64,000 nt of DNA from Candidatus Eiseniibacteriota bacterium (GCA_965224245.1 OZ245046.1:6240001-6304000), one strand, 5' to 3'; shown: positions 6,188-56,078, counted from the stretch's first letter. Numbers and translations are program-made. The notes: generated by a model from the letters alone, not told the origin.

Positions 6188-6223
6188 CGCGCCCTAAAGC
6201 GACTTCCATCCTGGAGGTGTCCG

Positions 6224-7402: not shown

Positions 7403-7454
7403 TGCATTCAAGTCCGGGCCTTCCGGAGGCACAGTTACGACAATCAAGGGTGGC

Positions 7455-10472: not shown

Positions 10473-10676
10473 GAGCGCCTTGTCTCCGGAAACTCCACGC
10501 GCCGCCCCAGGCGTCCGACTGACCAGACGTGGCCCGTGTGATGACCGAGCCGCACACTTTCCTGTTCGCATTCCGCAGGGAATCTCGCACTTCCTACAGG
10601 AGGACTCCCGACCCCGCAGATCGGATCGTGAGCGCGATTCCGGCTCCGGGGCCTCGTTCAATGGGAAGGGGCGGCC

Positions 10677-31684: not shown

Positions 31685-32170
31685 TGCGGTTCTCCAGGCT
31701 GTGGCCGCCCATCGTCCACGCGGTCGCCAGATGAGCCGCATCATTGTCCCCCGATCGGTAGTCCGGCTCCAGCCCATCCCACAGGGGACTGAACGCCCTT
31801 GCGAACGTCGCCTCGTCCTCGGGGCCCCGGAAGCCGACGCGCTGGCTCGACCTCGAGCCCGACCCACGCGGACTGGAGCGACTTCCTCGACCGCGCGAGG
31901 GCCGTCACGCCGTTCAGCCGGATCGCACCCGCGAGCTGTGGCTCGATCGTCACCCTCAGTGGCCGCTCCCCGACCACGATCGAACCGCAGAGTCCACGAG
32001 TGATCCAGAGATGAAGTAAGTCGCGACGGTGCAAACGATGTGGCGATCACGTCCCCTCGCGGAGCGGATCGCGGGCTGCTATTGCACCGATGGGTCGCTG
32101 AACGCGTGCGCTTCCACTCCGCCCGGTGTTGTCCTCGGGTAGACCAAACCCCGTCCAAAGGAGACCCTTC

Positions 32171-35413: not shown

Positions 35414-35587
35414 GGCCATCGACGCGGGGGAAGGCGGGCCACCCGGTGCCGCGTTCGATCACACGCGCGTGGCCGAGTGAGCGGGCTCGGTCCACCCCGA
35501 GCCCGCCTACGGCGACGCCGTTGCGCGACATGCACGTGTCTCGATACAATCGTGGTGCTCCGGACTCCTCATTCGGGAGCTGCCGCC

Positions 35588-37027: not shown

Positions 37028-37088
37028 TCGACGTGCGAGCAACCGCCGAGTCGACCGCGGCGGCGACATCGACCCCGGGACCTGGGTA

Positions 37089-37120
37089 GCCGCGAGACGA
37101 GACGCATTCGGGACACGACG
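37089..37120 (+). mobile_element. Decayed element right-end-like sequence
   Basis: GCCGCGAGA...ATTCGGGACACGACG vs GCCGCGTGA...ATTCGGACACAACG at about 4847-4881. Confidence 0.45.
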
Positions 37121-37138
37121 AAACCCTCGGGGGACTTC

Positions 37139-40100: not shown

Positions 40101-42436
40101 CGGCCGGACGATCCTCGTTCGAGATGCCGATCGTGGCCCCGGTACTCACGTACGTGTCGCAGTCGGTCCTGGCGGACGGGGAGACGTTCACGATCACGCC
40201 CACCGTGCGCAACACCGGGCGAGGCAACGCCGATGGCGTCGAGCTCCGCCTCGTCGCGACCGCGGGAGCGCCCACGGTGGTCGATTCCGTCCTCGCGATC
40301 GGTTCACTGGTGCCGGGCGCCGAGGTCGAAGCAGCCGGCGGATTCGTGCTCAACACGGCCGATCCGTCGAACGTGCGGTACTCGGTCGTCGCGAGCAGTG
40401 CGCGACCGGACGGGACGACGCTCTCCCGGGTGCACGAGGAGGGCGACCTGATCCCGCCGTGCGCACCGACCGGACTGTGGGTCGATCTCATCGGAAGTCA
40501 CGGTGCGCGGTGCAAGTGGCAAGCGCCCGACGGCGGATGCGCGCCCGACCTCGCCGGCTATCACGTCTACCGGCGGCTCGCGGGCGAGGTCGAGTTCGTG
40601 CGCGTCTACGCCGCCGATGCCGACAGCACGCGCTCGTTCACGGACGGGGGGTTGCCGGCGAACACGATGGTCGAGTACGTCGTGACGGCGGTCGACTCGG
40701 CCCGGAACGCGAGCTCGCCGAGCGCGGCGGCGGCGAATCAGACGTGGCTGCCCGAGCTACCCGGCTGGCCCCGTCAGGTCGATGCGGGAACGTTCGGCTC
40801 TCCGACGCTCGTCGATCTCGACGACGACGGCCGTCACGAGGTGCTGGTGCTGGGGAACGCGCTCTACGGCTGGCACGGCGACGGCACGCCCCTGGTGCCG
40901 GGCAGCGACGGCACGGTGTTCCGGACGCCCCGGCCTTACGACATCCTGGACCAGCCGGCCATCGGTGCGTTCTCGTCGACGCCCGCCGTCGCCGACCTCG
41001 ACGGCGACGGTGTGATGGAGATCGTCGTGTCGGCCTGGGACGACTCGCTGTGGGTCGTACACGAGGACGGCGAGGTGCTGTGGGGCCGCGAGTGCACGGC
41101 CAAGTACTCCTCCCCGGCGCTGGGCGATCTGGACGGCGACGGCGATCTCGAGGTCGTCGTGGGATCCCACCTCCCGAACGTCTATGCGTGGCACCACGAC
41201 GGGAGCTCGGTGGTCGGCGGGGGCACCGGCGGTCTGTTCGCGGTGCTGGGAGACGGCGCGGTCTACAACTACTCGACGCCGGCGCTCGTCGATCTCGACG
41301 GCGACGCCACGACGAAGGAGGTCGTGTTCACCTCGCACAAGGGCAACGTGTACGCGTGGCGAGGCGACGGCGCGTCGCTCTGGAGCCGGTTCACCGGAGC
41401 ATCGAGGCCCCTCTCGACGCCGGCCTTCGGAGACGTGGATCGCGACGGCGTACTCGAGGCGGTCGTGGCGCAGGGAAGCTCCGGCGTTCCCGACGGCGGG
41501 GCCAACCAGCTTCTCGTCCTGAACGCGGTCACCGGTCAGATCGAGAAGTCGTGGTCGGGCGCGACGCACATTCCCGGCGGGCTCCACTCGGCGGGCAACA
41601 TCATTCACGCACCCGCGCTGGCCGACATCGACGGCAACGCGGATCTCGAGATCCTCGTCGGCACAGAGGGCGACGTACCGCCCCTGTCGGAGGACGGCGC
41701 GACCGTCGTGATCTTCGACCACGACGCCGCCACGCACCGGGCGATCTGCCAGGACGAGATGCCCGAATCCCAGCTCGGCATGACCGGACAGGACGTGAAC
41801 GCCCAGCCGATCGTCGCGGAGATGGACGGCGATGCGACGCTCGAGGTCCTCGTCGGATCGAACACGTTCGGGCTCTACCTGTTCGACACCGCGGGCGCGT
41901 GCGACGCCGAGGACGGGTGGCCACTCCTCCTGGGCGGCGAGATCGAGGGCACGCCCGCGCTCGGCGACATCGACGGCGACGGCAGCCTGGACGTCGTGGT
42001 CCGCGGGCGGGACGACTGGGTGCACGCGTTCGACTTCGACGTCCCCTACGACCCCGACACCATTCACTGGGGACAGTACGCGCACGACCCCTCGCACACG
42101 TCCCAGCACGACACGCCGCCGAGCACGATCGGCTCCCCTCCCGGGGAGGTTCCGCCGCCGACGCTTCGTCTGGACGCGAGCACGCCCAACCCGTCGAACG
42201 ATCGGGCCACGATTCGCTTCGGTCTGCCGGGTCGCGCGCACGTTCGTCTCCGGATCTACGGCGTCGAGGGGCGACTCGTCCGTACGCTCATCGACGGCGT
42301 GCTGGACGGCGGCTACGCGGAGGCCGTGTGGGACGGTCGCGACGCTCGGGGACGTCGTACGCCGAGCGGAACGTACTTCTGCCACCTCGAGACCGGGGGC
42401 GAGGTGGTGGTGCGAAAGCTGCTGATTCTGCGCTGA
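37139..42436 (+). CDS. Gingipain-like peptidase C25 family protein + Ig/Fn3 + FG-GAP repeats + FlgD/T9SS-like CTD
   Basis: Propeptide (AGYPLLP...IALP), YVIVT...LADWKTSKG, YLLLGGD..VVPAR, D.YY.GLD.DW, VGRAP, GGAVAYIG..R, LLGDP; DLAGYHVYR Fn3; LPGWP / ADLDGDG repeats. Confidence 0.88.
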   Translation: MRFTVTAALLAFLATTSAQGTTVTVVDEGSSLRIHVDLTEAAVEVARGEPFDIVDLDGGHLSADTPAGYPLLPEIPIALALPAGMTLGAAHAGTGEPERVAGSVVPRPAPDPDLPDEPAAPDPAIYSGWAPHPASVVRSVRTGWCRGLAVGTLAIAPLRYVGAARTLEVYRDIVVDVELVPEDPGLARLRRHPSRSWADDEATIEWLRRTVANPEAVDATRSRAGARTPSREVFGGFHPTERPSTDGSPVRYVIVTDDVALDGHSIGSLTAIFQELADWKTSKGMPAVVRTLSWVRATYPGHDDPDRLRNFLIDAYELWGTDYLLLGGDLSVVPARRFNGLNLGLGDAPADVYYGGLDNDWDLDDDGRYGERTRDAGASDPFWDLFVGRAPVETQAEAEVFVSKSLSYVRESGGPGAGGYDPTYYDRMLLMAGLGNCADWGRTCNGLFVAETIARRLVPPTMSRQRLYQQLWDSSASCSYHETYNELLGVPDESWTVSAAMGALNAGVGFVHHFEHSNPYLEGGASGGFGCSASMGGAIGREHVDLLTNAPNWSIVYSTGAGVNAYDYDSVSEHWILNPEGGAVAYIGKTRSGTTYVTGDADTLSFLSIFQNGTDMGQTLAFATQSLLFSVDRAVASFALLGDPELLPFTTSPTGINVSLTPPDPVVGDQTIRVTVSELGTGVMVDGARVALVSGDDVYACGRTASDGTVDLAVSLSAEAPLTVTATARNHVPTRKVFQVGASSAPHVVYSLHEALDDSLAVANGDGIVDAGEVVEVVTTIRNEGADLTAGSVTIEPIGAVSFNVAIDGACDPSYVVIGRAGSAPGNCEPSFPTIEFAGVDPHGRPLRLAETSDPGLFLWRDGARWTVSSRGADDVSPPSTAVHGIVRVPGGVTDAEAGGLEAGDGWSLTTDGLEFDFSVDATADYDSLSFTAREDAWVVVGSDPVAVGTLLSDESASVSFLVHPLAESPDGHVPRLELAVVDGVGEPAGRSSFEMPIVAPVLTYVSQSVLADGETFTITPTVRNTGRGNADGVELRLVATAGAPTVVDSVLAIGSLVPGAEVEAAGGFVLNTADPSNVRYSVVASSARPDGTTLSRVHEEGDLIPPCAPTGLWVDLIGSHGARCKWQAPDGGCAPDLAGYHVYRRLAGEVEFVRVYAADADSTRSFTDGGLPANTMVEYVVTAVDSARNASSPSAAAANQTWLPELPGWPRQVDAGTFGSPTLVDLDDDGRHEVLVLGNALYGWHGDGTPLVPGSDGTVFRTPRPYDILDQPAIGAFSSTPAVADLDGDGVMEIVVSAWDDSLWVVHEDGEVLWGRECTAKYSSPALGDLDGDGDLEVVVGSHLPNVYAWHHDGSSVVGGGTGGLFAVLGDGAVYNYSTPALVDLDGDATTKEVVFTSHKGNVYAWRGDGASLWSRFTGASRPLSTPAFGDVDRDGVLEAVVAQGSSGVPDGGANQLLVLNAVTGQIEKSWSGATHIPGGLHSAGNIIHAPALADIDGNADLEILVGTEGDVPPLSEDGATVVIFDHDAATHRAICQDEMPESQLGMTGQDVNAQPIVAEMDGDATLEVLVGSNTFGLYLFDTAGACDAEDGWPLLLGGEIEGTPALGDIDGDGSLDVVVRGRDDWVHAFDFDVPYDPDTIHWGQYAHDPSHTSQHDTPPSTIGSPPGEVPPPTLRLDASTPNPSNDRATIRFGLPGRAHVRLRIYGVEGRLVRTLIDGVLDGGYAEAVWDGRDARGRRTPSGTYFCHLETGGEVVVRKLLILR

Positions 42437-42978: not shown

Positions 42979-45900
42979 ATGCATGGACAGAAGGACTTGG
43001 CTCCGCGAGTGACGTCGGCGGTGTGGCTGATCGGCGCGATCGCTTCCGTGACGGTCGGCCCGCACGCGGCTGAAACGGAGGAGGCTCGGCTGTCGTCCAC
43101 CGGCGACCGGCTCGGTCCGGCGGTGTGGACGCTGACGGGTGTCCAGGACGGAGAGAACCTCGGTCGGTCTGTCGCGTCGGCCGGTGACGTCAACGGGGAT
43201 GGCTACTCTGACGTCGTCGTGGCCGCACCGCTCTTCGACAGCGAGCTGGGCGGGACCGGCCGCGTCGCGGTCTACCACGGATCTAAGGACGGTGTGGACA
43301 TCGCCGCCGCATGGTCGCAAGAAGGTGGGTCCCAGCTCGGCTTCTCGGTGAACACAGCCGGTGATGTCAACGGAGATGGCTACGCGGACCTCATCGTCGG
43401 CGCATTGGACGCCGGGGCTCAGGTCTTTCATGGCTCGCCGTGTGGTCTGTCTCCCTCTCCCGACTGGACCGGCGGATCGGCGGCGAGAGCCGTCGCGTGT
43501 GCCGGAGACGTGAACGGTGACGGCTACTCCGATGTCATCATCGGGGAGCCCGGTGCTTCTGATAGCGCCGGTTTCGTCGCGGTCTTCCACGGCTCGTCCG
43601 CCGGCCTCTCCGACGTGGCCGACTGGTCAATCGCCAGCGGCTCGTACGACGTCTCCGCCGGTGACCAGCTCGGTTTCTCGGTCGCGTGTGCCGGCGACGT
43701 CAACGGCGACGGCTACTCGGACGTGATCATCGGCTCGCCGACGTATTCCGTGAGCGGGTGGGTGCTAGGGCGGGTGCTCGTCTTCTTCGGTTCGGTTGCC
43801 GGCGTGACCGGACCTCCCTGGATCCGGGAGTCGTGGGTGGAGACGAGCTACGACCCGCTCCTGGTGGCGGACGGCGGATATGGCAGCTCCGTCGCGGGCG
43901 TCGGCGACGTGAACGGGGATGGATACGCCGACGTGATCGTCGGGGCACCGGACATGGGACTATCCGGCGGGTTCCTGGACGGGTTGGCGTTCCTGTACGA
44001 GGGCGATCCCTCGGGCGTCGACGAGGTCACGGCCTGGACGGAGCGCGGCGACTGGAACAACCTCGGATCGTCCGTCGGCTCCGCGGGAGACGTCGACGGT
44101 GACGGCTTCGCGGACCTCGTGTTGGGGGCGCCCGGCTACGGTGCCGGCATCGCTCGTGTGTATCGCGGCGACGCGTCCGGCCCGCACCCGCCGTGGTCGA
44201 CGTACGCCGGAGGACAGACTGACGCTGCGTTCGGATCAGCCGTGGCCTCCGCTGGAGACGTGAACGGCGACGGATACTCGGACGTGATCGTCGGTGCCCC
44301 TCTTCACGATGGATCCGGCGTGGATGATGGCCAGGTGCAGGTATTCCACGGCGGCCCACTGCTTCCCCGCTCCGACGACGCCTGGTCCTGGCAGACCGGA
44401 CAGACCGGGGGAGGAATCGGGCTGAGGGTGGCCCCGGCGGGCGACATCGACGGCGACGGTTTCGGAGACGTCATCCTCGGCGCCCACGCGTTCGACGACG
44501 GGGAGCTCGACGAGGGCCGCGCCTTGCTGTTCCGAGGAACGTGGGCCGGACTCGCGCCGCTACCGTCCTGGACGGCCGACGGCGATCAAGTCGAGGCATA
44601 CCTCGGATCCGACATCGCCGGCGCCGGCGACGTGAACGGGGACGGCTACGCGGACGTCATCGTGGGCGCGCTCGGATACGACGGCGCCGAGGCCGACGTC
44701 GGTCGTGCGTATGTCTTTCACGGATCGCCGGAAGGGCTGTCCACGACCCCGGACTGGACCGCCGAGGGCGACCAGGTCGATGCTGCCTTCGGCGTCGGGG
44801 TCAGCTCCGCCGGTGACGTTAACGGGGACGGTCACGACGACGTCATCGTAGGAGCGTACCTCCATGACGGCGCGCACGTCGACGGCGGGCGGGCCCTCGT
44901 GTACCTCGGCTCGAGCTCGGGGCTCGAGAGCACGGCCTCGTGGATCGTGGAAGGAGGTCAGGCCAACGCCCGGCTGGGTTACCGGGTCGCGGGCGCGGGC
45001 GACGTCAACGGCGATGGCTTCGACGACGTGCTGGTTGGCGCGTACACCCATACCGGGGACTTTCCCGAGGAGGGCGCTGCGTTCCTCTACCTCGGCTCGG
45101 CATCCGGCTTGTCGACGACCTCCGCGTGGAGCGCGGAAGGTGACCAGGCGTACGCATGGTACTCCCGCGCGCTCGCGTCGGCGGGTGACGTGAATGGGGA
45201 CGGTCTGTCGGACGTGATCGTCGGTGCGTTCCGGTACAACGACGCGTACACCGACGACGGGCGTGCTTACGTTTACCTCGGGACACCGACCGGACTCGAG
45301 ACCGAGCCCGTGTGGACCACGAGCGGCGACGCCACCGAGGATCGCCTCGGGGATTCGGTCGACGGCATCGGGGACATCAACGGCGACGGCTTCGCGGACA
45401 TCGCCGTGGGAACCCGCGACGACGACAGCTACGCCACGAACGGCGGCTCCGTGCAGATTCATCTGGGCTCTCCGGGCGGTCCGGAGTCCGCGGCCGTGTG
45501 GCTACGCAGCGGTACGCAGGTGGGGGAAGAGCTCGGCACGCACCTCGCCGGCGTCGGCGATGTCGATGGCGACGGATTCGCCGACCTCGTCGCCTCGGCG
45601 CCCTACCGCGACGGCACCTACGTGGACGAGGGTCGGGCGCTGCTCTTCCCCGGTAACTACGGCCCCGGACGCGACCTTGGCCTTCGACAGCTACGTACCG
45701 ATGGCGTGACGCCGATCCCGCCGGGCTCACCGTCGGACAGTGACACCGAGTTCCATCTCCACGCTACGCTGCCATCGTTCGTGGGACGAACCGTTCTCCA
45801 GATCGAGGTTGAGGTGAAGCCGCATGGCTTGCCCCTCGATGGCACGGGGACCTGGCTCGGCGACGTCGTCGACACGGGGACTGCCGGACAGGCCACGTTC

Positions 45901-46362
45901 GCCGTAGTGGTGTCCGGACTCGCGTCGTCCACACCCCATCACTGGCGCGTACGATGCCACTTCGATCCGACACGACCGCCGTTCCAGGGCCACGGTCCAT
46001 GGCGACACATCCCCGACGGCGGCTGGGAGGAGGCCGACCTGCGCACGGCTCCGTCGATGCTCGACGTTGCGGATGCGGACAGGCATCATCCGACGATACT
46101 CCGGGCAATACGGAGCCCGACCCGGCTTCCCGTCCGCGTTCGCTACGTGCTCCCTCACCGGGGAGGCGTTCAGCTGACCGTGCACGATGTCGCGGGCCGA
46201 CACCTCGCCGATCTACGAGTAGCTCAGCAGGAGGGCGGTCCGCACACGGTTCGATGGGACGGATTCGATGACAGCGGACGGCGCGTCGCACCCGGTTTGT
46301 ACTTCATGCGGATGGCCTTCGACCACGGGTCCGAATGTCGCCGGTTTGTCGTGATCGAGTGA
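42979..46362 (+). CDS. Secreted integrin-alpha-like FG-GAP repeat protein with FlgD/T9SS-like CTD
   Basis: About 14 AGDVNGDGYxDVIVGA repeats, YHWR-like HHWRVR segment, HDVAGR...WDGFDDSG...GLYFMRM. Confidence 0.9.
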   Translation: MHGQKDLAPRVTSAVWLIGAIASVTVGPHAAETEEARLSSTGDRLGPAVWTLTGVQDGENLGRSVASAGDVNGDGYSDVVVAAPLFDSELGGTGRVAVYHGSKDGVDIAAAWSQEGGSQLGFSVNTAGDVNGDGYADLIVGALDAGAQVFHGSPCGLSPSPDWTGGSAARAVACAGDVNGDGYSDVIIGEPGASDSAGFVAVFHGSSAGLSDVADWSIASGSYDVSAGDQLGFSVACAGDVNGDGYSDVIIGSPTYSVSGWVLGRVLVFFGSVAGVTGPPWIRESWVETSYDPLLVADGGYGSSVAGVGDVNGDGYADVIVGAPDMGLSGGFLDGLAFLYEGDPSGVDEVTAWTERGDWNNLGSSVGSAGDVDGDGFADLVLGAPGYGAGIARVYRGDASGPHPPWSTYAGGQTDAAFGSAVASAGDVNGDGYSDVIVGAPLHDGSGVDDGQVQVFHGGPLLPRSDDAWSWQTGQTGGGIGLRVAPAGDIDGDGFGDVILGAHAFDDGELDEGRALLFRGTWAGLAPLPSWTADGDQVEAYLGSDIAGAGDVNGDGYADVIVGALGYDGAEADVGRAYVFHGSPEGLSTTPDWTAEGDQVDAAFGVGVSSAGDVNGDGHDDVIVGAYLHDGAHVDGGRALVYLGSSSGLESTASWIVEGGQANARLGYRVAGAGDVNGDGFDDVLVGAYTHTGDFPEEGAAFLYLGSASGLSTTSAWSAEGDQAYAWYSRALASAGDVNGDGLSDVIVGAFRYNDAYTDDGRAYVYLGTPTGLETEPVWTTSGDATEDRLGDSVDGIGDINGDGFADIAVGTRDDDSYATNGGSVQIHLGSPGGPESAAVWLRSGTQVGEELGTHLAGVGDVDGDGFADLVASAPYRDGTYVDEGRALLFPGNYGPGRDLGLRQLRTDGVTPIPPGSPSDSDTEFHLHATLPSFVGRTVLQIEVEVKPHGLPLDGTGTWLGDVVDTGTAGQATFAVVVSGLASSTPHHWRVRCHFDPTRPPFQGHGPWRHIPDGGWEEADLRTAPSMLDVADADRHHPTILRAIRSPTRLPVRVRYVLPHRGGVQLTVHDVAGRHLADLRVAQQEGGPHTVRWDGFDDSGRRVAPGLYFMRMAFDHGSECRRFVVIE

Positions 46363-46507
46363 TGTGCGCACGCGACCCGCATGGATCCTCGGCGGGACAG
46401 CCACGACTCCGTGGCCAGTTCGTGCATCATCGGTGACGGCCGCCCGTCGTTGATGCTCCGACGTGCCGCAAATGCCCACTCCCCTTGGTGGTGCAGCATC
46501 GCGCGAC

Positions 46508-46537
46508 TTGACAGGAATGCCAGTTTGCGACCACAAT
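46508..46537 (+). promoter_or_regulatory. Sigma70-type promoter of the cNMP operon
   Basis: Perfect TTGACA (46508-46513), 18-nt spacer, CACAAT (46532-46537). Confidence 0.6.
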
Positions 46538-46667
46538 GATTGGTTCCGGCGCGCACGACGCTTTCGGGCTCCGGCAACGGGCCGGATCGGGTGTCGTGGC
46601 GTTCGCGTTACCTCGATGCCCCGGAACGTGCAGTTGAGGCATCGCACGATTCGGGTGCGGGTGCGAC

Positions 46668-48428
46668 ATGGCGGTTTGGCCCGGGCAAAGCATCGGCGAC
46701 TCGGAATCGAGCTCGGCGATGAGCCTGCAAGACGGGTCCTCGGTCGCGGTCGTGGGCGGGGGACCCGCAGGGTCTTTCTTCGCCTATTTCCTGATCGAGA
46801 TGGCGGAACGGGCCGGGATTCAGCTCCGGGTCGACGTCTTCGAGCCGCGCGACTTCTCCCTCCGCGCCCCTCGCGGCTGCAACATGTGCGGCGGGATCAT
46901 CTCCGAGTCCCTCGTGCAGAACCTCGCCTCGGAGGGCATCAATCTCCCGACCGAGGTCGTGCAGCGCGGAATCGACGCCTACGTGCTTCACCTGGAATCG
47001 GGGAGCGTGCGCATCGACACGCCGCTTCACGAGAAGCGCATCGCCGCGGTCTATCGCGGGCCCGGGCCCCGGGATCTCTCGAGCCCGAAGTGGACCAGCT
47101 TCGACGGTCATCTGCAGAAGCTGGCCGCCGAACGGGGCGCGCGGATCGAGCCCCACCGTGTCGGGCGCATCGGCCGCACCGTCGATCGGATCGAGGTGGA
47201 GGCCAAGGGCGTGGAGACGCGACCCTACGACCTGGTCGCGGTCACGGTGGGGGTGAACACCGCGGGGATCGAGTTCGACCTCGGGCCCACGTTCGGGTAT
47301 CGGGCGCCGGGAACGACGAAGACCTTCATCCGCGAGTACCACCTCGGGGAGGAAGGCGTCGATCGGTTGCTCGGAAGCTCGATGCACGTCTTCCTCCTGA
47401 ACATCCCGCGGCTCGAGTTCGCGGCCATCGTGCCCAAGGGGGAGTACGCGACCGTCTGCATGCTCGGAGAGGACATCGACGGGGATCTGGTCCGGTCCTT
47501 TCTGGACTCCCCACAGGTCAGAGCGATCATGCCCGTGGACTGGGACGCGGAGAAGAGATCCTGTCAGTGTGGGCCGCGCATGAACGTGCAGCCGGCGGTC
47601 CAGCCATTCGACGATCGGGTCGTCTTCATCGGCGACTGCGGGATCACCCGGCTCTACAAGGACGGAATCGGAGCCGCCTATCGCGCCGCGAAGGCCGCGG
47701 CCACGACGGCCGTCTTCCAGGGAGTGAGCCGGGAGAGCTTTCGGCGCCACTACTGGCCGATCTGCAAGTCGATCGAGGCCGACAACTCGATCGGTCGCTT
47801 CATGTTCTCCATCACCCGCCAGATTCAGAGACGACCCTTCGCGGCCCGTGCGGTTCGGTCGATGACCGCGCGCGAGCAGCGGAAGGAGGGACGGGACCGG
47901 CGGATGAGCCAGGTGTTGTGGGACGTCTTCACCGGAAGCGCCCCGTACCGCGGCATCTTCATGCGCACGCTGCATCCGGCGTTTCTGGGACGGTTCGGAT
48001 GGCATCTGGCCGGCTCCGTGTTTTCGGCGAACGGCGCGAATGCCGCCGAGGGGGCAACCATGAGTACCGGTGCGGTGGGCGCCGTCTACGAGGACGGTCA
48101 GGTCATCGTGCGCCAGGGCGACGAGGGCGAGTGCATGTACGTCATCCAGGAGGGTCGGGCGCAGGTGTTCATCGAGCAGGACGGGCACGAGGTGCCGTTG
48201 CGGGTGCTCGAGGCCGGCGACATGATCGGTGAGATGGCGATCTGCGACCGCGAAGTCCGCTCGGCCACGGTCAAGGCGCTGGGGCGTACACGAATCCTCA
48301 CCGTCGACAGGCGAAACTTCCTGACTCGTATTCACGAGGATCCCTCGCTCGCGTTTCGGGTCGTTCGGACGATGTCCGCGCGGATCCGGGACCTCAGCGA
48401 GGAGGTCGCACGCCTCGGCCACCAGTGA
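46668..48428 (+). CDS. FAD-dependent oxidoreductase (geranylgeranyl-reductase/halogenase-like fold) fused to a cyclic-nucleotide-binding domain
   Basis: VAVVGGGPAG, GCNMCGG, IVPKG, FIGD...KDGI; C-terminal IVRQGD.G..MY.I..G...GEMA.....RSATV. Start may be ATG 46719. Confidence 0.88.
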   Translation: MAVWPGQSIGDSESSSAMSLQDGSSVAVVGGGPAGSFFAYFLIEMAERAGIQLRVDVFEPRDFSLRAPRGCNMCGGIISESLVQNLASEGINLPTEVVQRGIDAYVLHLESGSVRIDTPLHEKRIAAVYRGPGPRDLSSPKWTSFDGHLQKLAAERGARIEPHRVGRIGRTVDRIEVEAKGVETRPYDLVAVTVGVNTAGIEFDLGPTFGYRAPGTTKTFIREYHLGEEGVDRLLGSSMHVFLLNIPRLEFAAIVPKGEYATVCMLGEDIDGDLVRSFLDSPQVRAIMPVDWDAEKRSCQCGPRMNVQPAVQPFDDRVVFIGDCGITRLYKDGIGAAYRAAKAAATTAVFQGVSRESFRRHYWPICKSIEADNSIGRFMFSITRQIQRRPFAARAVRSMTAREQRKEGRDRRMSQVLWDVFTGSAPYRGIFMRTLHPAFLGRFGWHLAGSVFSANGANAAEGATMSTGAVGAVYEDGQVIVRQGDEGECMYVIQEGRAQVFIEQDGHEVPLRVLEAGDMIGEMAICDREVRSATVKALGRTRILTVDRRNFLTRIHEDPSLAFRVVRTMSARIRDLSEEVARLGHQ

Positions 48429-49462
48429 ACGCCATGAGCGAAGCGTCGCGAGTGACCATCCACTATCGGAATCGATCCGAGGACGGCACCGGAGGGCTCT
48501 TCCTCGTCTCCGGAGCTGGGACCGCCGAGGAGCGACGGTATGCCTTCGGCGATCGGATCGAGATCGGACGGTTCCTGCCCGACCGCGAGCGCGATCACGG
48601 GGTTCTTCTGATCGACGAGCCGCGTGTCTCCCGGGAGCACTGCGTCATCGAGCGGTCGCGAGACGGACGGTGCCGGATCCGGGACACGAGCCGGAACGGC
48701 ACGTGGATCGACGGCCGCCGGCTCGTCCCCAGCGTGGAGATGGAGATCGAGATCGGGCAGGTGATCCGGATCGCCAACCTCGTGGATCTCACGCTTCAGG
48801 GGACGGCCCGTCCGGCGGTCCCGACGGGGGAGTGGAACCCCACGGTCACCGGATCCGGGTTGAGCATGGTGACCGTGCTCGTCGGCGACATTCGCGACTA
48901 CACGGTCCTCGTGCGAAGCGTCGCCTCCGAGGTGCTGCAGCGTTCGGTCTCACGGGTCTTCCGGAGACTCGAGGAGGAGGTCACCCGCTGCGGGGGCACG
49001 GTGAAGGAGTACCCGGGCGACGCCATCGTCGCGTTCTGGGAAGAGTGTGCGAGCCGCAATCACGCAGCATCGGCGTGCCGGGCCGCGCTGGTCCTCGATC
49101 GTGCCGTGCACCGGCTGGCCGTGGATCGTGACGTGTGGGACGTACCCGGCTACGAGCTCCGCATGGACTGGGCACTGGCCACGGGATGTGTGAACATCTC
49201 GAGCGCCGGCGGTGACCGGCCGTCCGGGCTGACGATGGTCGGCGAAGCGGCGGTTCTCGCGTTTCGGATCGAGAAGCTCGCCGACGACACGACCGGGCCG
49301 ATCCTCGCCTGCGGGTTCACCAGGGCCATGGTCGGGACCGACTTCTCGTTTCGGGATCTCGGCGATGTGCAAGCCAAGGGGTTCGACGAGCCGACCCCGC
49401 TGTTCGCGCTCCTCGGCGCCGGCGAGCTGCCGATCTCGCCGTCCATCGGCGACCCGACGTGA
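48425..49462 (+). CDS. FHA domain + class III nucleotidyl cyclase
   Basis: FHA motifs IGR, VSREH and SRNGT; cyclase motifs GDIRDYT, KEYPGDAI, VGE...LAFRIE and KG. GTGA overlap with the upstream stop (alternative start ATG 48434). Confidence 0.9.
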   Translation: MNAMSEASRVTIHYRNRSEDGTGGLFLVSGAGTAEERRYAFGDRIEIGRFLPDRERDHGVLLIDEPRVSREHCVIERSRDGRCRIRDTSRNGTWIDGRRLVPSVEMEIEIGQVIRIANLVDLTLQGTARPAVPTGEWNPTVTGSGLSMVTVLVGDIRDYTVLVRSVASEVLQRSVSRVFRRLEEEVTRCGGTVKEYPGDAIVAFWEECASRNHAASACRAALVLDRAVHRLAVDRDVWDVPGYELRMDWALATGCVNISSAGGDRPSGLTMVGEAAVLAFRIEKLADDTTGPILACGFTRAMVGTDFSFRDLGDVQAKGFDEPTPLFALLGAGELPISPSIGDPT

Positions 49463-50319
49463 GGGAACGTCCGATGGAGCGCGCGACCGAGCGTGACGGA
49501 CCGCTTCGGCTGGTCTTCCGGGGTGTACGGGGATCGATCGGCAGCCCCGGCAAATCGACGCTTCGCTACGGCGGCCACACTGCGTGCCTCACGGCTCGGC
49601 TGGCGCCCGAGTCCTGGCTCGTGCTGGACGGCGGGAGCGGGCTCCGGACGCTGCACGCCGATCTCCCGCCGAGCCCGGCCGGTACACTCCACTTCCACGT
49701 TCTCTTCACCCACTACCACCGCGACCACATCGAGGGCCTCATGCTCTTCGATCCCCTCTACGAGTCGGCGTGTCGGTTCACGTTCTACGGTCACCGATGG
49801 GGGGATGTCGGGGTTCGGGAGGCGCTGATCGGGATCCTGCGGCCGCCGTGGGCGTCGGTCGCGCTCGAGGAGACCCGATCGGAGAAGGTCTACCGGGACC
49901 TGGACGGGGCCGGGATCGAGATCGGCGGGATCCGGATCTCGACCGCGCCGCTTCGACATCCCCAGGGGGCCACGGCGTACCGACTCGATCGCGGCCCGCG
50001 CTCGATCGTCGTGGCCACCGACACCGAGGGGGGGGATCCCGACCACGACGACGCACTTCGATCGCTCGCCCGCGACGTTGACGTGCTCGTCGTCGACGCC
50101 CAGTACACGCCCGACGAGTACGGAGAACGCCGAGGCCGCGGACACGGGACGTGGGAGCACGCGACCCGGATCGCACGCGAGTGCGGAGCGCGACGACTCG
50201 TGTTGTTTCATCACGATCCCGATCGCACCGACGATGAGCTGGACGCGATCGTCGAGGCGGCACGCAGCGCGCACCCTCGCGTCGAGGCCGCCCACGAGGG
50301 CATGAGCCTCGCGCTCTGA
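49459..50319 (+). CDS. MBL-fold metallo-hydrolase (RNase Z/phosphodiesterase-like)
   Basis: GVRGS...RYGGHTAC, LDGGSG, THYHRDH, HPQG, TDTE, DAQY, GH and LFHHDP motifs. GTGA overlap with the upstream stop (alternative start ATG 49474). Confidence 0.9.
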   Translation: MRERPMERATERDGPLRLVFRGVRGSIGSPGKSTLRYGGHTACLTARLAPESWLVLDGGSGLRTLHADLPPSPAGTLHFHVLFTHYHRDHIEGLMLFDPLYESACRFTFYGHRWGDVGVREALIGILRPPWASVALEETRSEKVYRDLDGAGIEIGGIRISTAPLRHPQGATAYRLDRGPRSIVVATDTEGGDPDHDDALRSLARDVDVLVVDAQYTPDEYGERRGRGHGTWEHATRIARECGARRLVLFHHDPDRTDDELDAIVEAARSAHPRVEAAHEGMSLAL

Positions 50320-50369
50320 GGCGCCATCGCCCCGCTCCATCGTCGGACTCGGATGATCCCTGGACCTCG

Positions 50370-50382
50370 CCTGGTGTATCAT
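50370..50382 (+). promoter_or_regulatory. Candidate sigma70 -10 element
   Basis: CCTGGTG-TATCAT about 50 nt upstream of 50434, which has an AGGAGG RBS. Confidence 0.4.
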
Positions 50383-50433
50383 TGTGCGGACGACCACAGG
50401 AAAACCCATCACGCGTCACGGTAGGAGGACGAG

Positions 50434-52644
50434 GTGCCTCTACTTGGATGTCCGAAGCGCGCGGCTCGCCTCTCGAACTGGAAATCGACGATCGCCGTCT
50501 TCGCGCTCGCGTCGACCGCTCCGGTCTCGACCCACGCGGATTGTCTGGACTACGGCGGCGACTACCCGCATCTCATCGACACCATTTGGTTCGGCTCTCA
50601 GCTGACGGCGTTCCACGTGACGGAAGACGGATTGGCCTACGTGGGCTCGCGCTGGGAAGGCAACGGCTTCGTGTCGGTGTACGACCTCACGTCTCCGGAG
50701 GCACCGGCCTCGATCGGGTCGGTCTCCATCGCCGGTCCGCCATCCGAGATCGATGTGACCGGCGCACTCATGTGCGTCGTGAGCGATGGGGGGCTCGAGG
50801 TATTCGACGTCACGAATCCGGCCACGCCCGTCCTCCTCGGCTCGGAGACCTCGATGCTCGCCGCGAGCGGTGTTTCCGTCGAGGGATCGATCGCGTACGT
50901 ATCGGATCGCGACAGCGGCCTCCACGTCGTCGACCTCACTGATCCGAGCGCGCCCGCTCACCTCGGGAGCGTGGCGATGCCGTCGGAGGCGTATCACGTC
51001 GACGGGTCCGGCGACTACGCGTTCGTTGCCGATCGTCTCGGCGGTCTCGTCGTCGTGGACGCCTCGGACGGAACCAGCCCGGTCGTCATCGGCAACGTGC
51101 CCACGCCCGACGAGTGCTGGGGTGTGCTCGTGGCGGACGACATCGCCTACGTGAGCGCTGCCGTGGCCGGCGTGCAGATCGTCGACGTGTCGACGCCATC
51201 CGCTCCCGCGCTGCTCACGACCGTGGACACGCAGGGAAGGCCGCGGCGCTTTCAGCTCGACGGCACGGACCTGTACGTGTGTGACCGCTGGTTCGGCCTC
51301 ACCGTCCTCGACGTGTCGGATCCGGCCGCCGCGGACGTCAGCGCCGCGATCGCCGGCCCCGGGTGGTTCATGGACGTGGGGGTCTGGAGCGGAGTCGGCT
51401 ACTTGACGTACGCCGAGTATGACGGAGCGCTCTTCCTCTATGACGTGGCCAGCCCAGTGAGCCCCGAAGTCGTGGGCACGCTCGACACTCCGGGCAGCAC
51501 CCGCGGCGTCGCGATTGCCGGGGACCTCGCGTACATCGGAGACGGGAACGGGGGGCTCTTCTCGGTCGACATCTCCGATCCGACGACGCCCGTCTTCGAG
51601 GGATCGCTGAGTCTTCCCTATGCGCGCCAGGTGGCTCTCCACGGGAACGTGGCGTATGTGGGCGATCTGGATGCGGTTCACGTCGTCGACATCTCCGACC
51701 CGTCCGCACTCGTGCTCGTGACCAGCGTCGCGACGCCGGACTTCGTATGGGGTATGGCGGTCCACGAGACGTCCCTTCTGGTCGCGGCGGACGAAGCCGG
51801 TCTTCTGATCTTCGACATCTCCGACCCGCACGACCCCACGCTGGTCAGAGCCGTGGCCACGACGCTGTACTCCTGGGACGTCGCCGTGAACGGCGACTAC
51901 GCCTACGTGGCGGGCCGATACCTGGCCGTCGTCGACATCTCGACACCCTCGAGCGCGTTTCTCGTCACCGAAACGACTCCCACGATCGGCGAGGGGATCG
52001 CGATCTCCGGTGATCGCGCGTACGTGTCCGGATCGTCGCGGCTACATGTGGTCGACATCTCCAGTCCCGCGAGTCCGACGTGGCTCGGAAGTCTCACGAC
52101 CCAGTCCGTCGAGGACGTGGTGGTGATGGACGAGTACGCCTTCGTGACGACGAACGGCTCGGGGGTGCAGGTCGTGAACGTGGCCGATCCGTTCAACCTC
52201 GAGCTCGTGGCGAACATCGGGACGACCGGCGAGCTGGTCGGGATCGCGGTGGCGGGTGAACACCTCGCGGTCGCCAACGGAGTCAACGGTCTCCGCATCC
52301 TCCCCGGACACTGTGGCGCGGTGGTTTCGGTGCCGGAGGGTGTGACGGCCACCGTGCTCGACCCGCTGCGAATCCGGCCCAACCCGGGTCGGAGCTCGTT
52401 CACGTTGACGTTCGAGCAGAATCAGCGGGCACGCACGGTGGTCACCGTTCACGACGCCGCCGGACGACTCGTGCGCGAGCTCTTCGATGCGGAGCTCACG
52501 GCCGGCACGCACACGATGTCCTGGGATGGCCGGAACGACGCGGAACGAGTCGCGGCGCCGGGCGTCTACTTCGTCCAGGTCGAAAGCGTCGCGGGACCGT
52601 CGGGCGTCGAGAGCCACCGGCAACGTGTCGTTCTCGTCCCGTGA
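50434..52644 (+). CDS. Secreted LVIVD-repeat protein with FlgD/T9SS-like CTD
   Basis: Repeats of AYV.D...GL.(V/I)VD(V/I)SDP..P; PNPGR...HDAAGRLV...WDGRN...GVYFV. Confidence 0.88.
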   Translation: MPLLGCPKRAARLSNWKSTIAVFALASTAPVSTHADCLDYGGDYPHLIDTIWFGSQLTAFHVTEDGLAYVGSRWEGNGFVSVYDLTSPEAPASIGSVSIAGPPSEIDVTGALMCVVSDGGLEVFDVTNPATPVLLGSETSMLAASGVSVEGSIAYVSDRDSGLHVVDLTDPSAPAHLGSVAMPSEAYHVDGSGDYAFVADRLGGLVVVDASDGTSPVVIGNVPTPDECWGVLVADDIAYVSAAVAGVQIVDVSTPSAPALLTTVDTQGRPRRFQLDGTDLYVCDRWFGLTVLDVSDPAAADVSAAIAGPGWFMDVGVWSGVGYLTYAEYDGALFLYDVASPVSPEVVGTLDTPGSTRGVAIAGDLAYIGDGNGGLFSVDISDPTTPVFEGSLSLPYARQVALHGNVAYVGDLDAVHVVDISDPSALVLVTSVATPDFVWGMAVHETSLLVAADEAGLLIFDISDPHDPTLVRAVATTLYSWDVAVNGDYAYVAGRYLAVVDISTPSSAFLVTETTPTIGEGIAISGDRAYVSGSSRLHVVDISSPASPTWLGSLTTQSVEDVVVMDEYAFVTTNGSGVQVVNVADPFNLELVANIGTTGELVGIAVAGEHLAVANGVNGLRILPGHCGAVVSVPEGVTATVLDPLRIRPNPGRSSFTLTFEQNQRARTVVTVHDAAGRLVRELFDAELTAGTHTMSWDGRNDAERVAAPGVYFVQVESVAGPSGVESHRQRVVLVP

Positions 52645-53123: not shown

Positions 53124-56078
53124 ATGCATTCCAAGTCAGCATCGGTGGTTTTTCTGCTGGTTACCGGGCTCCTCACGGCCGCCACGGCGGGGGCCGAATC
53201 CCCGCCCCACTACTGGAGCCAGTCCTTCGGCGCCTCCGGCTATGACCACGGCCGGGGCTGCGCCGTGGATGGAGCCGGCAACTCGATCGTCGTGGGGTGG
53301 TTCACCGACCTGGTGTACTTCGACTCCGGCCCGGTTCTGAGTCAGGGCCCGCAGGATGCATTCATCGCGAAGTACGACCTCTCTGGAAACCACCTCTGGA
53401 CCAGGTCCTTCGGCGGTGACGGACCCGCGTCCGCCCTGGCCGTGGATGTCGACGAGGCAAACAACATCTACGTCACCGGTTCGTACGAGGGAACGATCGA
53501 TTTCGGCTCCGGCCCCGTCACGAGCGCCGGCGACACGGACATCTTCCTAGTCAAGCTGGACGCCGGCGGAAGCCACCTCTGGAGCCAGAGCTACGGAGAT
53601 CCCGACCACGACGTCGCCGAGGCGATCGCGGTGGACAGCTCAACCGGGTACATCTTCCTCACGGGCAGCTTCCGCGCCCGACTCGACCTCGGAGGCGGAG
53701 ATCTGACCAGCAGCGGGGACGATGACATCTTCCTGGCCCAGTTCAAGACGGCCTACGGCACTCACACCTGGAGTCGGAGCTTCGGGGCCGGCGGACTCGA
53801 TTCGGGGCAGGGCCTGTCCGTGGACTCGGCGGGCCACGTCGTCGTGACCGGGACCTGCAAGGGCCCGATCGATCTCGGCGGAGGTCCGCTGAGTGGCCCC
53901 GGGGGCAGTGACATCTTCATGGCCGAGTACGACGTGTCCGGCGCCCACGAGTGGAGTCGGTTGCTCGGGGGACCGGAGGAGGACCGGGGGCTCGACGTCG
54001 AGGTCGATGACTCCGACGACATCCTGCTGACCGGGTACTTCGTCGACGTCGCCCATCTCGGTGGTGGGAGCCTGACCAGCAATGGCCTCGAGGATGTCTT
54101 CCTGGCCCGTTACGACTCCGGTGGCGGTCACATCTGGTCTCGGAGCTTTGGAGGCCCGGGCGAGGATCGGGGAACCGCCCTGGTCTCGAACGCGATGCAG
54201 GAAGTCTTCCTCACGGGCTCGTACCACGACCAGGTCGACTTTGGTGGCGGCGCGCTGGAATCGAACGGGAGCTCGGACATCTTCCTGGCCAAGTTCAAGG
54301 CAACTGGAAGCCACCTCTGGAGTCAGCACTTCGGAAGCGATGACCCGGATTGCGGATCAGCGATTGCGGCCGATGCGGCGTCCAATGTGATCCTGTCCGG
54401 CTTTCTCCAGGGACTCGTCTGGCTCGGGGGCGATGGTGTCCACGGTGACTACAACAGCCCCGACGCGTTCGCGTCCGGCTACGACACGAACGGGACCCAA
54501 ATCTGGGGGGATGCCTTTGGAGGTCGAGGTTTCGACACCGTGCGGGATCTCGCGATCGACGGATCCGGGAACGTGATCATCGTCGGCGCCAAGCATGGCA
54601 GCGTCGACTTCGGAGGCGGCCCGCTCGGATTCGCGGGCAACGACGACATCTTCGTCGCCAAGTTCGATCCGGCGGGCGTCCATCTGTGGAGCAAGGGTAT
54701 CGGAACCCTCGGAAACGAGACCGCCATTCGCGTCACCGTCGACACCGTGGGCGACATCTACGTCGCCGGGGAGTTCGGCCTGGACATCGACTTCGGGGGC
54801 GGGCTCGTGTCCGGCTCGGGCGACGTCGACGTGTTCCTCGTCAAGTACGATTCGGGCGGCGTCCACCTGTGGTCGAAGGGACTCGGCGGCGCTCTCGCAG
54901 ACCAGCTGGGCGGCATCGGTGTCGACGACGCCGGAGACGTCATCATCGCCGGCGGGTTTCAGGCCTCCGTCGACTTCGGGGGCGGGATCCTGACCAGTGC
55001 CGGAAGCCTCGATGTCTTCGTGGCCAAGTACGATTCGGACGGCGCACACCTCTGGAGCCAGCAATACGGAGACTGGAACGTCGACTACGCGACCGCACTG
55101 GGTCTGGACGTCGACAAGATCCTCGTCGGCGGTCATTTCGCGGACTCCATCGACTTCGGCGGAGGCGTCATCACGGTTGATCCCACCGCGGACTTCCTGG
55201 TGAAGTTCAGCTCGGCCGGATCCCACGTGTGGAACCGGGTGTTCGAAGGTGGCTCGACCTTCATCCATGATGTGGTGGGCGGACCGACCGGGAACCTCAC
55301 CATGACCGGAAGCTTCTGGAACTGGGTCGATCTCGGCGGCGGGGTTCTCACCGCCACCGGGAATCAGGACGCCTTCATCGGCCACTTCGACAACGGCGGC
55401 GACCACATCTGGTCCGCAGCGTTCGGGGGCCCGGAACCCGACGGTGGAAGCGAGGTGTGTCCCATCCCCGGTGGAGGGTTCCTGGCCACGGGCTACTTCG
55501 AGGGTGCCGTCGACTTCGGTGGAGGTACGATGGTCAGCAACGGAGAGCGCGACGCGTACCTCGCCGAGTTCAGCGCCAGCGGTGTCCATCTCTGGAGCCA
55601 GCAATACGGCGGCGCGGGCCGGGCCGGAGGCTCCGCACTGGGGATCGATTCCGGTGGTGAGGTCCTGTTTGGCGGGGTCTTCGACGACATCATCGACCTC
55701 GGTGGGGCACCGCTCTCGACCGGGACGGACATCGACTTCTTTCTCGCCAGGTTCGGACCCTCCGTCGTCGACGTCGAGTCGTCTCCTGGGGTCGATCTCC
55801 CCGGGCTGGTCCTCTCATCGGGTTCTCCGAATCCGTTTCGACGTCGGACGGAAGTTGCATTCGACTTGCCCCTGGCTTCGCGCGTCTCCCTGGGGATCTA
55901 TGACGTCTCGGGACGTCTCCGGCGGACCCTCGTGGATGGAAGGCTGACCGCCGGCATGCACGTGGTCGCCTGGGATGGACAGGAGTCTTCGGGACATGCC
56001 GCACCCCCGGGAATCTACTTTGCTCGCGTCTCCGTGGCCGGGCAAGCTCGGAGCACCAAGTTGATCCGGGTGGAGTGA
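53124..56078 (+). CDS. Secreted SBBP-like repeat (D.F.AK.D..G.HLWS..FG) protein with FlgD/T9SS-like CTD
   Basis: Signal peptide; about 14 repeats with DFGGG.L.S.G..D.F; PNPFRR...YDVSGR...WDGQ...GIYF. Confidence 0.88.
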   Translation: MHSKSASVVFLLVTGLLTAATAGAESPPHYWSQSFGASGYDHGRGCAVDGAGNSIVVGWFTDLVYFDSGPVLSQGPQDAFIAKYDLSGNHLWTRSFGGDGPASALAVDVDEANNIYVTGSYEGTIDFGSGPVTSAGDTDIFLVKLDAGGSHLWSQSYGDPDHDVAEAIAVDSSTGYIFLTGSFRARLDLGGGDLTSSGDDDIFLAQFKTAYGTHTWSRSFGAGGLDSGQGLSVDSAGHVVVTGTCKGPIDLGGGPLSGPGGSDIFMAEYDVSGAHEWSRLLGGPEEDRGLDVEVDDSDDILLTGYFVDVAHLGGGSLTSNGLEDVFLARYDSGGGHIWSRSFGGPGEDRGTALVSNAMQEVFLTGSYHDQVDFGGGALESNGSSDIFLAKFKATGSHLWSQHFGSDDPDCGSAIAADAASNVILSGFLQGLVWLGGDGVHGDYNSPDAFASGYDTNGTQIWGDAFGGRGFDTVRDLAIDGSGNVIIVGAKHGSVDFGGGPLGFAGNDDIFVAKFDPAGVHLWSKGIGTLGNETAIRVTVDTVGDIYVAGEFGLDIDFGGGLVSGSGDVDVFLVKYDSGGVHLWSKGLGGALADQLGGIGVDDAGDVIIAGGFQASVDFGGGILTSAGSLDVFVAKYDSDGAHLWSQQYGDWNVDYATALGLDVDKILVGGHFADSIDFGGGVITVDPTADFLVKFSSAGSHVWNRVFEGGSTFIHDVVGGPTGNLTMTGSFWNWVDLGGGVLTATGNQDAFIGHFDNGGDHIWSAAFGGPEPDGGSEVCPIPGGGFLATGYFEGAVDFGGGTMVSNGERDAYLAEFSASGVHLWSQQYGGAGRAGGSALGIDSGGEVLFGGVFDDIIDLGGAPLSTGTDIDFFLARFGPSVVDVESSPGVDLPGLVLSSGSPNPFRRRTEVAFDLPLASRVSLGIYDVSGRLRRTLVDGRLTAGMHVVAWDGQESSGHAAPPGIYFARVSVAGQARSTKLIRVE

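Follow-up and report, generated by a model that had tools for sequence, protein, structure and literature searches.

Bacterial cyclic-nucleotide signalling is known mainly through transcription factors (CRP) and defence systems. The Pycsar defence systems pair a class III-type cyclase gene with one for a protein bearing a cyclic-nucleotide-binding (CNB) domain, and their cyclases make pyrimidine cyclic nucleoside monophosphates (cNMPs). A cyclase, a receptor and a phosphodiesterase are reportedly encoded together in the cyaD1-clr-spdA cluster of Sinorhizobium meliloti, where the reader is said to be a CRP-type transcription factor. CNB domains are also found fused to enzymes under allosteric control, as in Bdellovibrio Bd1971 (CNB-EAL) and the mycobacterial acetyltransferase Pat, while the combination of an FHA domain with a cyclase is a known architecture, exemplified by Synechocystis Cya1. 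Here we describe a three-gene operon (p1-p2-p3) within a 64,000-nucleotide (nt) stretch of the genome of a Candidatus Eiseniibacteriota bacterium (OZ245046.1:6240001-6304000), which was analysed as a whole and is called the window; positions are counted from its first letter. The operon is probably a second-messenger unit, in which a guanylate-cyclase-like protein with an FHA domain (p2) would be the writer, a flavoenzyme with a CNB domain (p1) the reader, and a hydrolase of the metallo-beta-lactamase (MBL) fold (p3) the eraser. It resembles cyaD1-clr-spdA in having writer, reader and eraser genes side by side, and differs from it in that the reader would gate an enzyme and the input would arrive via phosphothreonine.

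The three open reading frames (ORFs) lie on the plus strand. They encode the flavoenzyme-CNB fusion p1 (586 aa; 46668-48428), the soluble FHA and class III cyclase protein p2 (345 aa; 48425-49462) and p3, a putative MBL-fold phosphodiesterase of the RNase Z/YhfI/PhnP clade (286 aa; 49459-50319). An earlier reading of the window by a model that was given the DNA alone (the sequence-only reading) had described three genes with GTGA overlaps behind one promoter-like TTGACA site, and the ORFs, the junctions and the site were all recovered. The overlaps are read directly at 48425-48428 (p1/p2; cca-GTGA-ac) and 49459-49462 (p2/p3; ac-GTGA-gg). These four-base overlaps hold if the GTG starts of p2 and p3 apply; ATG codons located 6 nt (p2) and 12 nt (p3) downstream are equally possible starts and are the ones used in the database copies, which have 342 and 281 aa. 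No transmembrane (TM) segment was detected in p1, p2 or p3, whose Kyte-Doolittle means over 19 residues reach maxima of 1.51, 1.21 and 0.86, respectively. The motifs named in the sequence-only reading (CNMC, CQC and HxHxDH) are present, as is an intact CNB domain judged by its phosphate-binding cassette residues. Its assignment of p2 as an FHA and class III cyclase protein without TM segments agrees with the match to PF00498, the matches to solved cyclases and the hydropathy profile, the cyclase model PF00211 being negative (see below).

Gene linkage was investigated by tblastn in 201 genomes of the window's phylum (the phylum sample) and in a metagenome set made of the best 80 of 310 confirmed p2 relatives, which were obtained by scanning contigs with the p2 alignment and lean to close relatives. 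Of the 201 genomes, the window's included, 11 have p1, 14 have p2 and 12 have p3. The p2 gene directly adjoins p1 on the same strand in all ten other genomes that hold p1. Three genomes have a p2 match and no p1: in G154 the match lies at a contig start, in G071 it is a CHASE2-cyclase recognized through its catalytic domain only, and in G082 it is an FHA-cyclase beside a subtilase and a GAF protein. Of the metagenome loci, 63 extend for 500 nt or more upstream of the FHA-cyclase gene, and 40 of these have a CNB gene directly 5' of it in the same orientation; 40 loci extend for 2000 nt or more, and 24 of them have a FAD gene 5' of the cyclase. The other 23 of the 63 loci, where no CNB gene precedes the cyclase, count against the second-messenger reading. 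Several loci without a CNB or FAD gene 5' of the FHA-cyclase carry there a divergent pair coding for a NapC/NirT-type multihaem cytochrome and a 251-aa CNB protein (L071 2801-4143, minus strand; likewise L072, L085, L086, L090, L096 and L107), and others carry the gene of an RRM protein. Beyond the sample, p1 homologues were located in 14 full or partial loci with record titles of Chloroflexi, Anaerolineales, Latescibacteria, Calditrichia, Ignavibacteria, Krumholzibacteriia, Eisenbacteria and Terriglobia. The gene downstream of p1 in these 14 loci codes for an FHA-cyclase in three cases and for a zinc-ribbon-cyclase-AAA16-TPR protein in two (L003, L008); a divergent BTAD-AAA16 STAND protein is encoded in two of them. 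The conserved unit is flavoenzyme, CNB and FHA-cyclase. The synteny of the trio proposed in the sequence-only reading is seen across the phylum and the metagenomes for these components, and it is the MBL that varies.

The CNB domain of p1 (Pfam residues 474-554; 48087-48329, plus strand) matches cNMP_binding (PF00027) with an E value of 6.8e-23 (80.9 bits against a cut-off of 27.5), and its phosphate-binding cassette is complete (G521-E522...R531-S532-A533). The CNB chains of Bd1971 match p1 with E ~5e-17 and the Pat model NF058543 matches it at 1e-10. The regulated enzyme sets the present locus apart from both proteins, being here a FAD protein with a fold like that of geranylgeranyl reductases (GGRs) and FixC; a further difference is that the CNB is a separate protein in relatives. 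The FAD and CNB parts are encoded by separate genes in each of the 39 metagenome loci with all three components (FAD, CNB and FHA-cyclase), none of which is fused: the two genes are in different frames in 37 loci and are divided by an in-frame stop codon in the remaining two. In 25 of these 39 loci the stop codon of FAD and the start codon of CNB share a 4-nt overlap (ATGA, GTGA or TTGA), and the others have gaps of a few to ~14 nt, with a GGAGG-like motif in some of the examples printed. The free CNB protein of relatives has 125 aa and its start codon aligns with M465 of p1. Two separate FAD and CNB matches were likewise found in eight of ten genomes of the phylum sample, the other two having one match with an internal TAG. 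Fusion, which the sequence-only reading had presented as a property of the system, is thus an exception within the phylum sample and the metagenome set. Among the p1 matches listed in the database search, all 120 cover at least 94% of p1, and fused forms of ~590 aa are common elsewhere. Such alternation of fused and split forms (a Rosetta-stone pattern) is a classical sign that the flavoenzyme is the target of the CNB protein.

The p2 FHA domain (residues 61-116; 48605-48772, plus strand) was identified by Pfam PF00498 with E 2.9e-12. Residues of p2 were counted in 35 sequences at ~50% identity, namely the window protein and 34 of 120 listed homologues (692 homologues were found at E <= 0.001). 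The phosphothreonine-binding residues R49, S69, H72 and N91 are each present in 35 of 35. The family is sizeable, with ~31 clusters at 50% identity having E < 1e-70 and 124 at E <= 1e-30. The FHA domain is followed by a divergent class III cyclase domain (residues ~143-334; 48851-49426, plus strand) recognized through its matches to solved cyclases: Pseudomonas aeruginosa CyaB (3r5g; E 2e-13 over residues 148-330) and the Synechocystis guanylate cyclase Cya2 (2w01; E 2.6e-11 over residues 143-334). These are the closest solved catalytic domains; p2 is distinguished from them by its FHA domain, by Ser/Thr replacing Gly at the second specificity site and by Val for Asn at the transition-state site.

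The catalytic residues of p2 bear on the nature of its product. The metal-binding aspartates D155 and D199 and the arginine R281 are each found in 35 of 35 sequences. The site occupied by Lys in adenylate cyclases is E195 in p2, which aligns with the Glu of Cya2 and is Glu in all 35, while the second specificity site (position 270) is Ser in 30, Thr in two (the window protein included), Ala in two and Leu in one. Guanylate cyclases are described in PMC4215837 as having Glu for Lys and C/S/T/H/A/G for Asp at these sites. The p2 family conforms to this residue rule. In CHASE2-cyclases of this phylum the corresponding residues are Lys, Thr and Asn, and therefore the set of Glu, Ser/Thr and Val marks the p2 family and not the lineage. 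The most likely product of p2, judged by its specificity residues, would be 3',5'-cGMP.

Two features speak against a conventional cyclase. PF00211 had no match at E <= 0.01 on the window p2 (precomputed PF00211 matches are present on some other members of its family), and the transition-state Asn site, V277 in p2, is Val in 34 of 35 sequences and Ile in one. With this Asn-to-Val replacement the p2 domain might turn over slowly, yield a different product or be a pseudo-enzyme. An explanation in which the p2 domain is dead, or makes something other than a 3',5'-cNMP, would turn p2 into a phospho-dependent scaffold and would have the CNB domain sense a ligand from elsewhere, or a non-nucleotide as some sensors of the CRP/FNR family do. 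Besides the family-wide substitution and the failure of PF00211 on the window copy, it is favoured by the state of the phosphate-binding cassette in the fused p1 homologues: the cassette Arg is R in 23 of 33, Q in seven and H in three, so that it is gone in ten and some members of the fused family may not bind cyclic nucleotides. The near-invariance of the metal Asp pair, the Arg and the Glu/Ser-Thr pair in sequences at ~50% identity argues, however, for selection on catalysis. Moreover, Ma1120 is an active cyclase with a natural Ala in place of the Asn, and it loses activity on introduction of Asn (PMC4215837). Genes of the phosphodiesterase (PDE) type are also repeatedly recruited beside the cyclase, and no other class III cyclase that could feed the five CNB proteins of the genome was detected, the sole alternative candidate being a weak CYTH match of 28 bits. 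We regard a p2 without 3',5'-cNMP output as improbable and retain the guanylate-cyclase-like writer as the preferred reading.

The N-terminal part of p1 (residues ~23-453; 46734-48026, plus strand) is a FAD domain of the PHBH/GR2 fold, assigned from structural neighbours and motifs. It has a GxGxxG motif, the CNMC motif (C71 and C74, in the context C71-N-M-C74-G-G), the CQC motif (C299 and C301) and C366. The alignment and the AlphaFold2 (AF2) model were made from 33 sequences, comprising the window protein and 32 of 120 listed matches, all of them fused forms of ~560-640 aa, with ~720-aa forms omitted. The five cysteines are each conserved in 33 of 33 sequences of this alignment. One source annotates the omitted forms (P0002-P0009 and others) as [quoted passage not shown]; an extra domain, possibly a second CNB, appears to be present in them. 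Database searches retrieved at least 4,881 p1 homologues at E <= 0.001, a number that includes matches by way of the CNB domain. By record titles the family occurs in Eisenbacteria, Krumholzibacteriia, Latescibacteria, Chloroflexi and others.

The AF2 model of the whole p1 protein (pLDDT 82.9, pTM 0.86) was compared with solved structures using VIA-align. The best neighbour is the GGR-like protein of Thermoplasma (3oz2; Z 28.1, root-mean-square deviation 3.5, 361 residues aligned), followed by FixC of the Fix/EtfABCX complex (7koe_C; Z 27.3), the brominase Bmp2 (Z 26.3) and Sulfolobus GGR (3atq; Z 25.9). The geranylgeranyl-reductase superfamily model TIGR02032 matched 15 of 15 FAD-only members of the family almost from end to end of the model (best E 1.5e-14). 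A search of the PDB with a profile of the window's N-terminal part and 14 split-form genes yielded no solved sequence relative of the FAD part better than E 0.02, and a Protein Atlas search with homologue P0023 led to no family other than its own, apart from unnamed FAD clusters scoring <0.9. Two results set limits to an enzymatic assignment. Many enzymes of the PHBH fold fall within ~3 Z units, so that reductase and monooxygenase chemistry are not separable for p1, and p1 scores 36.4 bits on TIGR02032 against a cut-off of 158.8, all 15 FAD-only members being also below it. In addition to this distance from the GGR model, p1 is unlike GGRs and FixC in its invariant CxxC and CxC tetrad. On the basis of its model, the FAD part of p1 is predicted to have a GGR/FixC-like fold with an invariant Cys tetrad. 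The CGG motif is placed after the second beta strand, the position at which GGRs have a conserved Cys. GGR-like paralogues lacking the CxxCGG motif are encoded in genomes G081 and G030 (L123-L125). It is a speculative suggestion that the Cys tetrad is a redox-active or metal/Fe-S site. Equally speculative is a role of p1 in the reduction of a hydrophobic substrate of the quinone or isoprenoid type or in passing electrons to the quinone pool; this proposal is made because of the GGR/FixC-like fold, the pairs of NapC/NirT cytochrome and CNB genes, a CBS-CNB-cytochrome of the window's genome and the frequent NmrA/DUF2867 neighbour in relatives (both presented below).

The third gene product, p3, has a Lactamase_B_2 domain (Pfam; E 5e-17) with the HxHxDH motif in the form HYHRDH (H85-H90). 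The ligands of its binuclear site (H85, H87, D89, H90, H167, D188, H229 and H252) are invariant in 34 sequences and its model has a pLDDT of 92.8. MBL fold and HxHxDH motif are shared with class-II cAMP PDEs, such as yeast PDE1, and with the anti-Pycsar protein Apyc1. The structural neighbours nearest to p3 are nonetheless Escherichia coli ZipD/RNase Z (Z 28.7) and Bacillus subtilis YhfI (Z 28.3), ahead of a PhnP-family diphosphatase (Z 24.7), yeast PDE1 (4ojv; Z 22.0) and Apyc1 (7u2r; Z 20.1). The PDE models PF02112 (class-II cAMP PDE) and PF23023 had no match on p3 even at E <= 1, and NF041851 (cyclic-nucleotide-degrading PDE) scored 44.2 bits against a cut-off of 400; p3 attains none of the curated family thresholds. 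These data weigh against an eraser. An RNA-end or cyclic-phosphate diesterase would be equally allowed by the fold neighbours. Some MBLs of the p3 type (P0321, P0323, P0334, P0337, P0340 and others) are ~400-424 aa long and end in a PilZ domain (PF07238), which was verified in P0321 with E 8.7e-7; this domain hints at a tie to c-di-GMP.

An MBL gene is found directly 3' of the FHA-cyclase gene in seven of the 12 evaluable phylum loci. It is of the p3 type in the window's genome and in G154 (44% identity) and codes for another MBL, of 250 aa, in five genomes (G035, G044, G069, G096, G158). The latter type is recognized by the class-II PDE model PF02112 with 39.7-64.2 bits against a cut-off of 23.7 (L013, L019, L020, L021, L025), and the two types are barely alignable (27% identity over 132 residues, E 6e-4). 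The eraser position of the cyclase operon is thus occupied by replaceable genes. In 53 metagenome loci the sequence continues for 600 nt or more after the cyclase; a PF02112-type MBL follows the FHA-cyclase in six of these and a p3-type MBL in none. The latter count is a further point against p3 as a regular partner, and the exact trio of the sequence-only reading does not stand as a conserved unit. A Pkinase gene lies within 1.2 kb 3' of the cyclase in six of the 53 loci, and kinase genes are found beside the module in several relatives. The same interval holds, in 18 of the 53 loci, the gene of a ~505-aa protein with NmrA/NAD_binding_10 and DUF2867 domains. Examples of this gene, which is not part of the window's operon, are L039 5042-6568, L076 2814-4322, L082 5948-7564 and L094 4136-5665, among others. 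Locus L013 presents a co-directional string of FAD (5253-6734), CNB (6731-7102), FHA-cyclase (7099-8100), class-II-type PDE (8097-8855) and Pkinase-TPR (8965-11298) genes, with 4-nt overlaps between the first four.

MBLs of the p3 type are found in a second operon type as well. It is composed of genes for an M48 peptidase, an adenylate-cyclase-like CHASE2-cyclase, a p3-type MBL and an MscS-CNB channel. It occurs in G043, a genome of the same family as that of the window, and in G071, and is cut off by the end of the contig in G086. The loci are L111 4335-9779 (minus strand), L029 6071-11654 (plus strand) and L114 3833-7443 (plus strand); the contig of L114 ends inside the MBL gene and the channel is not visible there. 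Judged by its domains, this operon appears to be another set of writer, eraser and reader, with an ion channel as output.

The possibility has then to be weighed that the pair of cyclase and CNB-flavoenzyme is real and that p3 is not its eraser but an RNase Z/YhfI/PhnP-like diesterase, with RNA ends, 2',3'-cyclic phosphates or some other phosphodiester as substrate and with a different reason for its place in the operon. This possibility agrees with the top-ranking matches by sequence and by structure, which are RNase Z, ZipD and YhfI, with the scores on PDE models, with the absence of the p3 type after the FHA-cyclase in the metagenome loci and with the PilZ domains of some homologues, which hint at other nucleotide ligands. 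Yet the RNase Z model TIGR02651 fits only the C-terminal third of p3 (53.2 bits against 292.95) and a better, still sub-threshold, RNase Z candidate exists elsewhere in the genome (73.6 + 44.7 bits). Furthermore, p3 matches at E <= 1e-20 were obtained in seven phylum genomes other than the window's own, and in four of these the gene lies directly after a class III cyclase gene, followed in two by a CNB channel gene, while a PF02112-positive MBL occupies the slot of p3 in other relatives. We consider it unlikely that p3 serves such a different purpose. This repeated recruitment beside cyclases and CNB effectors, together with the recognisable class-II PDE in the same slot of relatives, is the reason why p3 is predicted to be a cyclic-nucleotide phosphodiesterase.

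The reach of a p2 signal was assessed in the window's genome (6.94 Mb, 97% complete). Its 99 Pkinase matches do not allow the kinase that feeds p2 to be named. In this genome no other class III cyclase was found, there being no PF00211 match and no second relative of p2, and PF02112 had no match; CYTH gave the single weak match mentioned above. Six CNB domains are present in five proteins, p1 among them. The other four are a 140-aa CNB protein, a 704-aa protein with CBS, CNB and multihaem cytochrome domains, a 571-aa protein with two CNBs and a CNB-HATPase protein. The 704-aa protein, whose haem part is cytochrome c (c7/c3/NapC-NirT-like), is encoded on own-genome contig C1 (L120 2740-4851, minus strand) and would be a cyclic-nucleotide-sensing cytochrome. 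The sequence-only reading had seen a private circuit in the operon. Since p2 is the only detectable class III cyclase and four further CNB proteins exist, the circuit is not private: p2 is likely the nucleotide source for all five CNB proteins, p1 being the receptor that is encoded with it.

A defensive role had also been left open in the sequence-only reading. The operon would then be a Pycsar-type anti-phage system with an infection-triggered cyclase, a CNB-flavoenzyme as abortive-infection effector (by draining a redox cofactor, for instance) and an MBL acting as housekeeping brake. The gene arrangement is alike, the PADLOC Pycsar models touch the CNB domain (PycTIR 47.6 bits, TIR effector 48.1) and the cyclase (PycC 34.4), and the distribution of p1 and p2 in the phylum is patchy. 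However, these PADLOC matches are weak, generic and confined to domains (22-48 bits), and none was obtained for p3. The output is a flavoenzyme without the TM, TIR or nuclease killing module of an effector, and the FHA input, the PDE gene and the guanylate-cyclase-like specificity residues are further differences from Pycsar. The gene order is stable over several phyla, as seen from record titles, and the neighbours in relatives are genes for kinases, NmrA/DUF2867 proteins, photolyase, M48 peptidase and cytochromes. p2 is, moreover, the only class III cyclase of a genome with five CNB proteins. No defence gene was found in the neighbourhoods of relatives, nor among the operon flanks in the window, which code for very large secreted repeat proteins (FG-GAP, LVIVD, SBBP and peptidase C25 domains) with C-terminal FlgD_ig/type IX secretion system (T9SS)-type domains. 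An anti-phage function is therefore very doubtful.

The promoter-like site, TTGACA-18 nt-CACAAT (46508-46537, plus strand), is located ~130 nt 5' of the p1 start and is a consensus match only. It is the sole sigma-70-like site within 46200-50600, with 10 of 12 matches (shuffled sequences give 0.4 +/- 0.7), and taken alone is weak evidence for a promoter. The G+C content around the locus is ~67%. An Rfam search of 46200-50600 found no family in the ~130-nt leader, the only hit being a chance snoRNA match (E 0.61), and therefore no riboswitch was found in the leader. Giant secreted repeat proteins with FG-GAP, LVIVD, SBBP, DUF7948, PD40, peptidase C25 and Sortilin/BNR domains abound in the window. 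Their genes are all on the plus strand (2044-4548, 6224-7402, 7455-10472, 10677-13334, 37139-42436, 42979-46362, 50434-52644, 53124-56078 and 56797-63417), and the FlgD_ig or Por_Secre_tail-type C-termini of nearly all of them suggest a T9SS-like sorting signal. A Ser/Thr kinase gene with Pkinase and PD40 domains is found 30 kb 5' of the operon (13375-16275, minus strand). Two very long ORFs have no Pfam match (31244-35419, minus strand, 1391 aa; 35507-39790, minus strand, 1427 aa). The latter overlaps the plus-strand gene 37139-42436 and, in DNA of high GC content, may be at least in part an antisense shadow.

Domain content, the conserved residues of catalysis and ligand binding, and a conserved order of the genes are established by the sequences; on this basis the following sequence of events can be proposed. 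The FHA domain of p2 would dock on phosphothreonine produced by one of the Ser/Thr kinases of the genome, timing in this way the activity of the catalytic dimer. The p2 dimer would then synthesize a cyclic nucleotide, most likely 3',5'-cGMP, whose binding to the CNB domain of p1 would switch the flavoenzyme allosterically, as the fusion/fission pattern suggests. The nucleotide would probably also reach the four other CNB proteins, including the CBS-CNB-multihaem cytochrome. Hydrolysis by p3 would reset the system, in line with the recurrent linkage of MBL genes to cyclases. The logic of writer, reader and eraser set out in the sequence-only reading is supported by the synteny of p1 and p2, the MBL genes after the cyclase and the kinase neighbours; privacy of the circuit, the exact trio, a general fusion and a role in defence are the parts that found no support.

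A broader picture may be drawn more tentatively, and we put it forward as a possibility only. The operon could belong to a widespread cGMP pathway in which phosphothreonine-gated guanylate cyclases act through small CNB proteins or fusions on redox enzymes of membrane electron transport, with interchangeable MBL phosphodiesterases as off switch. The enzymes concerned would be the Cys-tetrad GGR/FixC-like flavoprotein, NapC/NirT-type multihaem cytochromes and NmrA/DUF2867 proteins. Ser/Thr kinases would by this route set the redox state of respiration or of the quinone pool post-translationally.

All parts of the operon are of familiar kinds (an FHA domain, a class III cyclase, a CNB domain and an MBL phosphodiesterase) and the logic of a cyclase with a CNB effector is known too. 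New are the effector family, its family of guanylate-cyclase-like FHA-cyclases and the link to redox proteins. No published work on the operon or on a CNB-regulated GGR-like flavoenzyme was found in full-text searches of the literature outside subscription journals. Very few instances of bacterial cGMP signalling are, to our knowledge, on record. Among the references of PMC4215837 is a title with the words "a dearth of guanylylcyclases". The operon could give a function to a flavoenzyme family and could serve to probe control running from kinase to cGMP to redox enzyme in bacteria.

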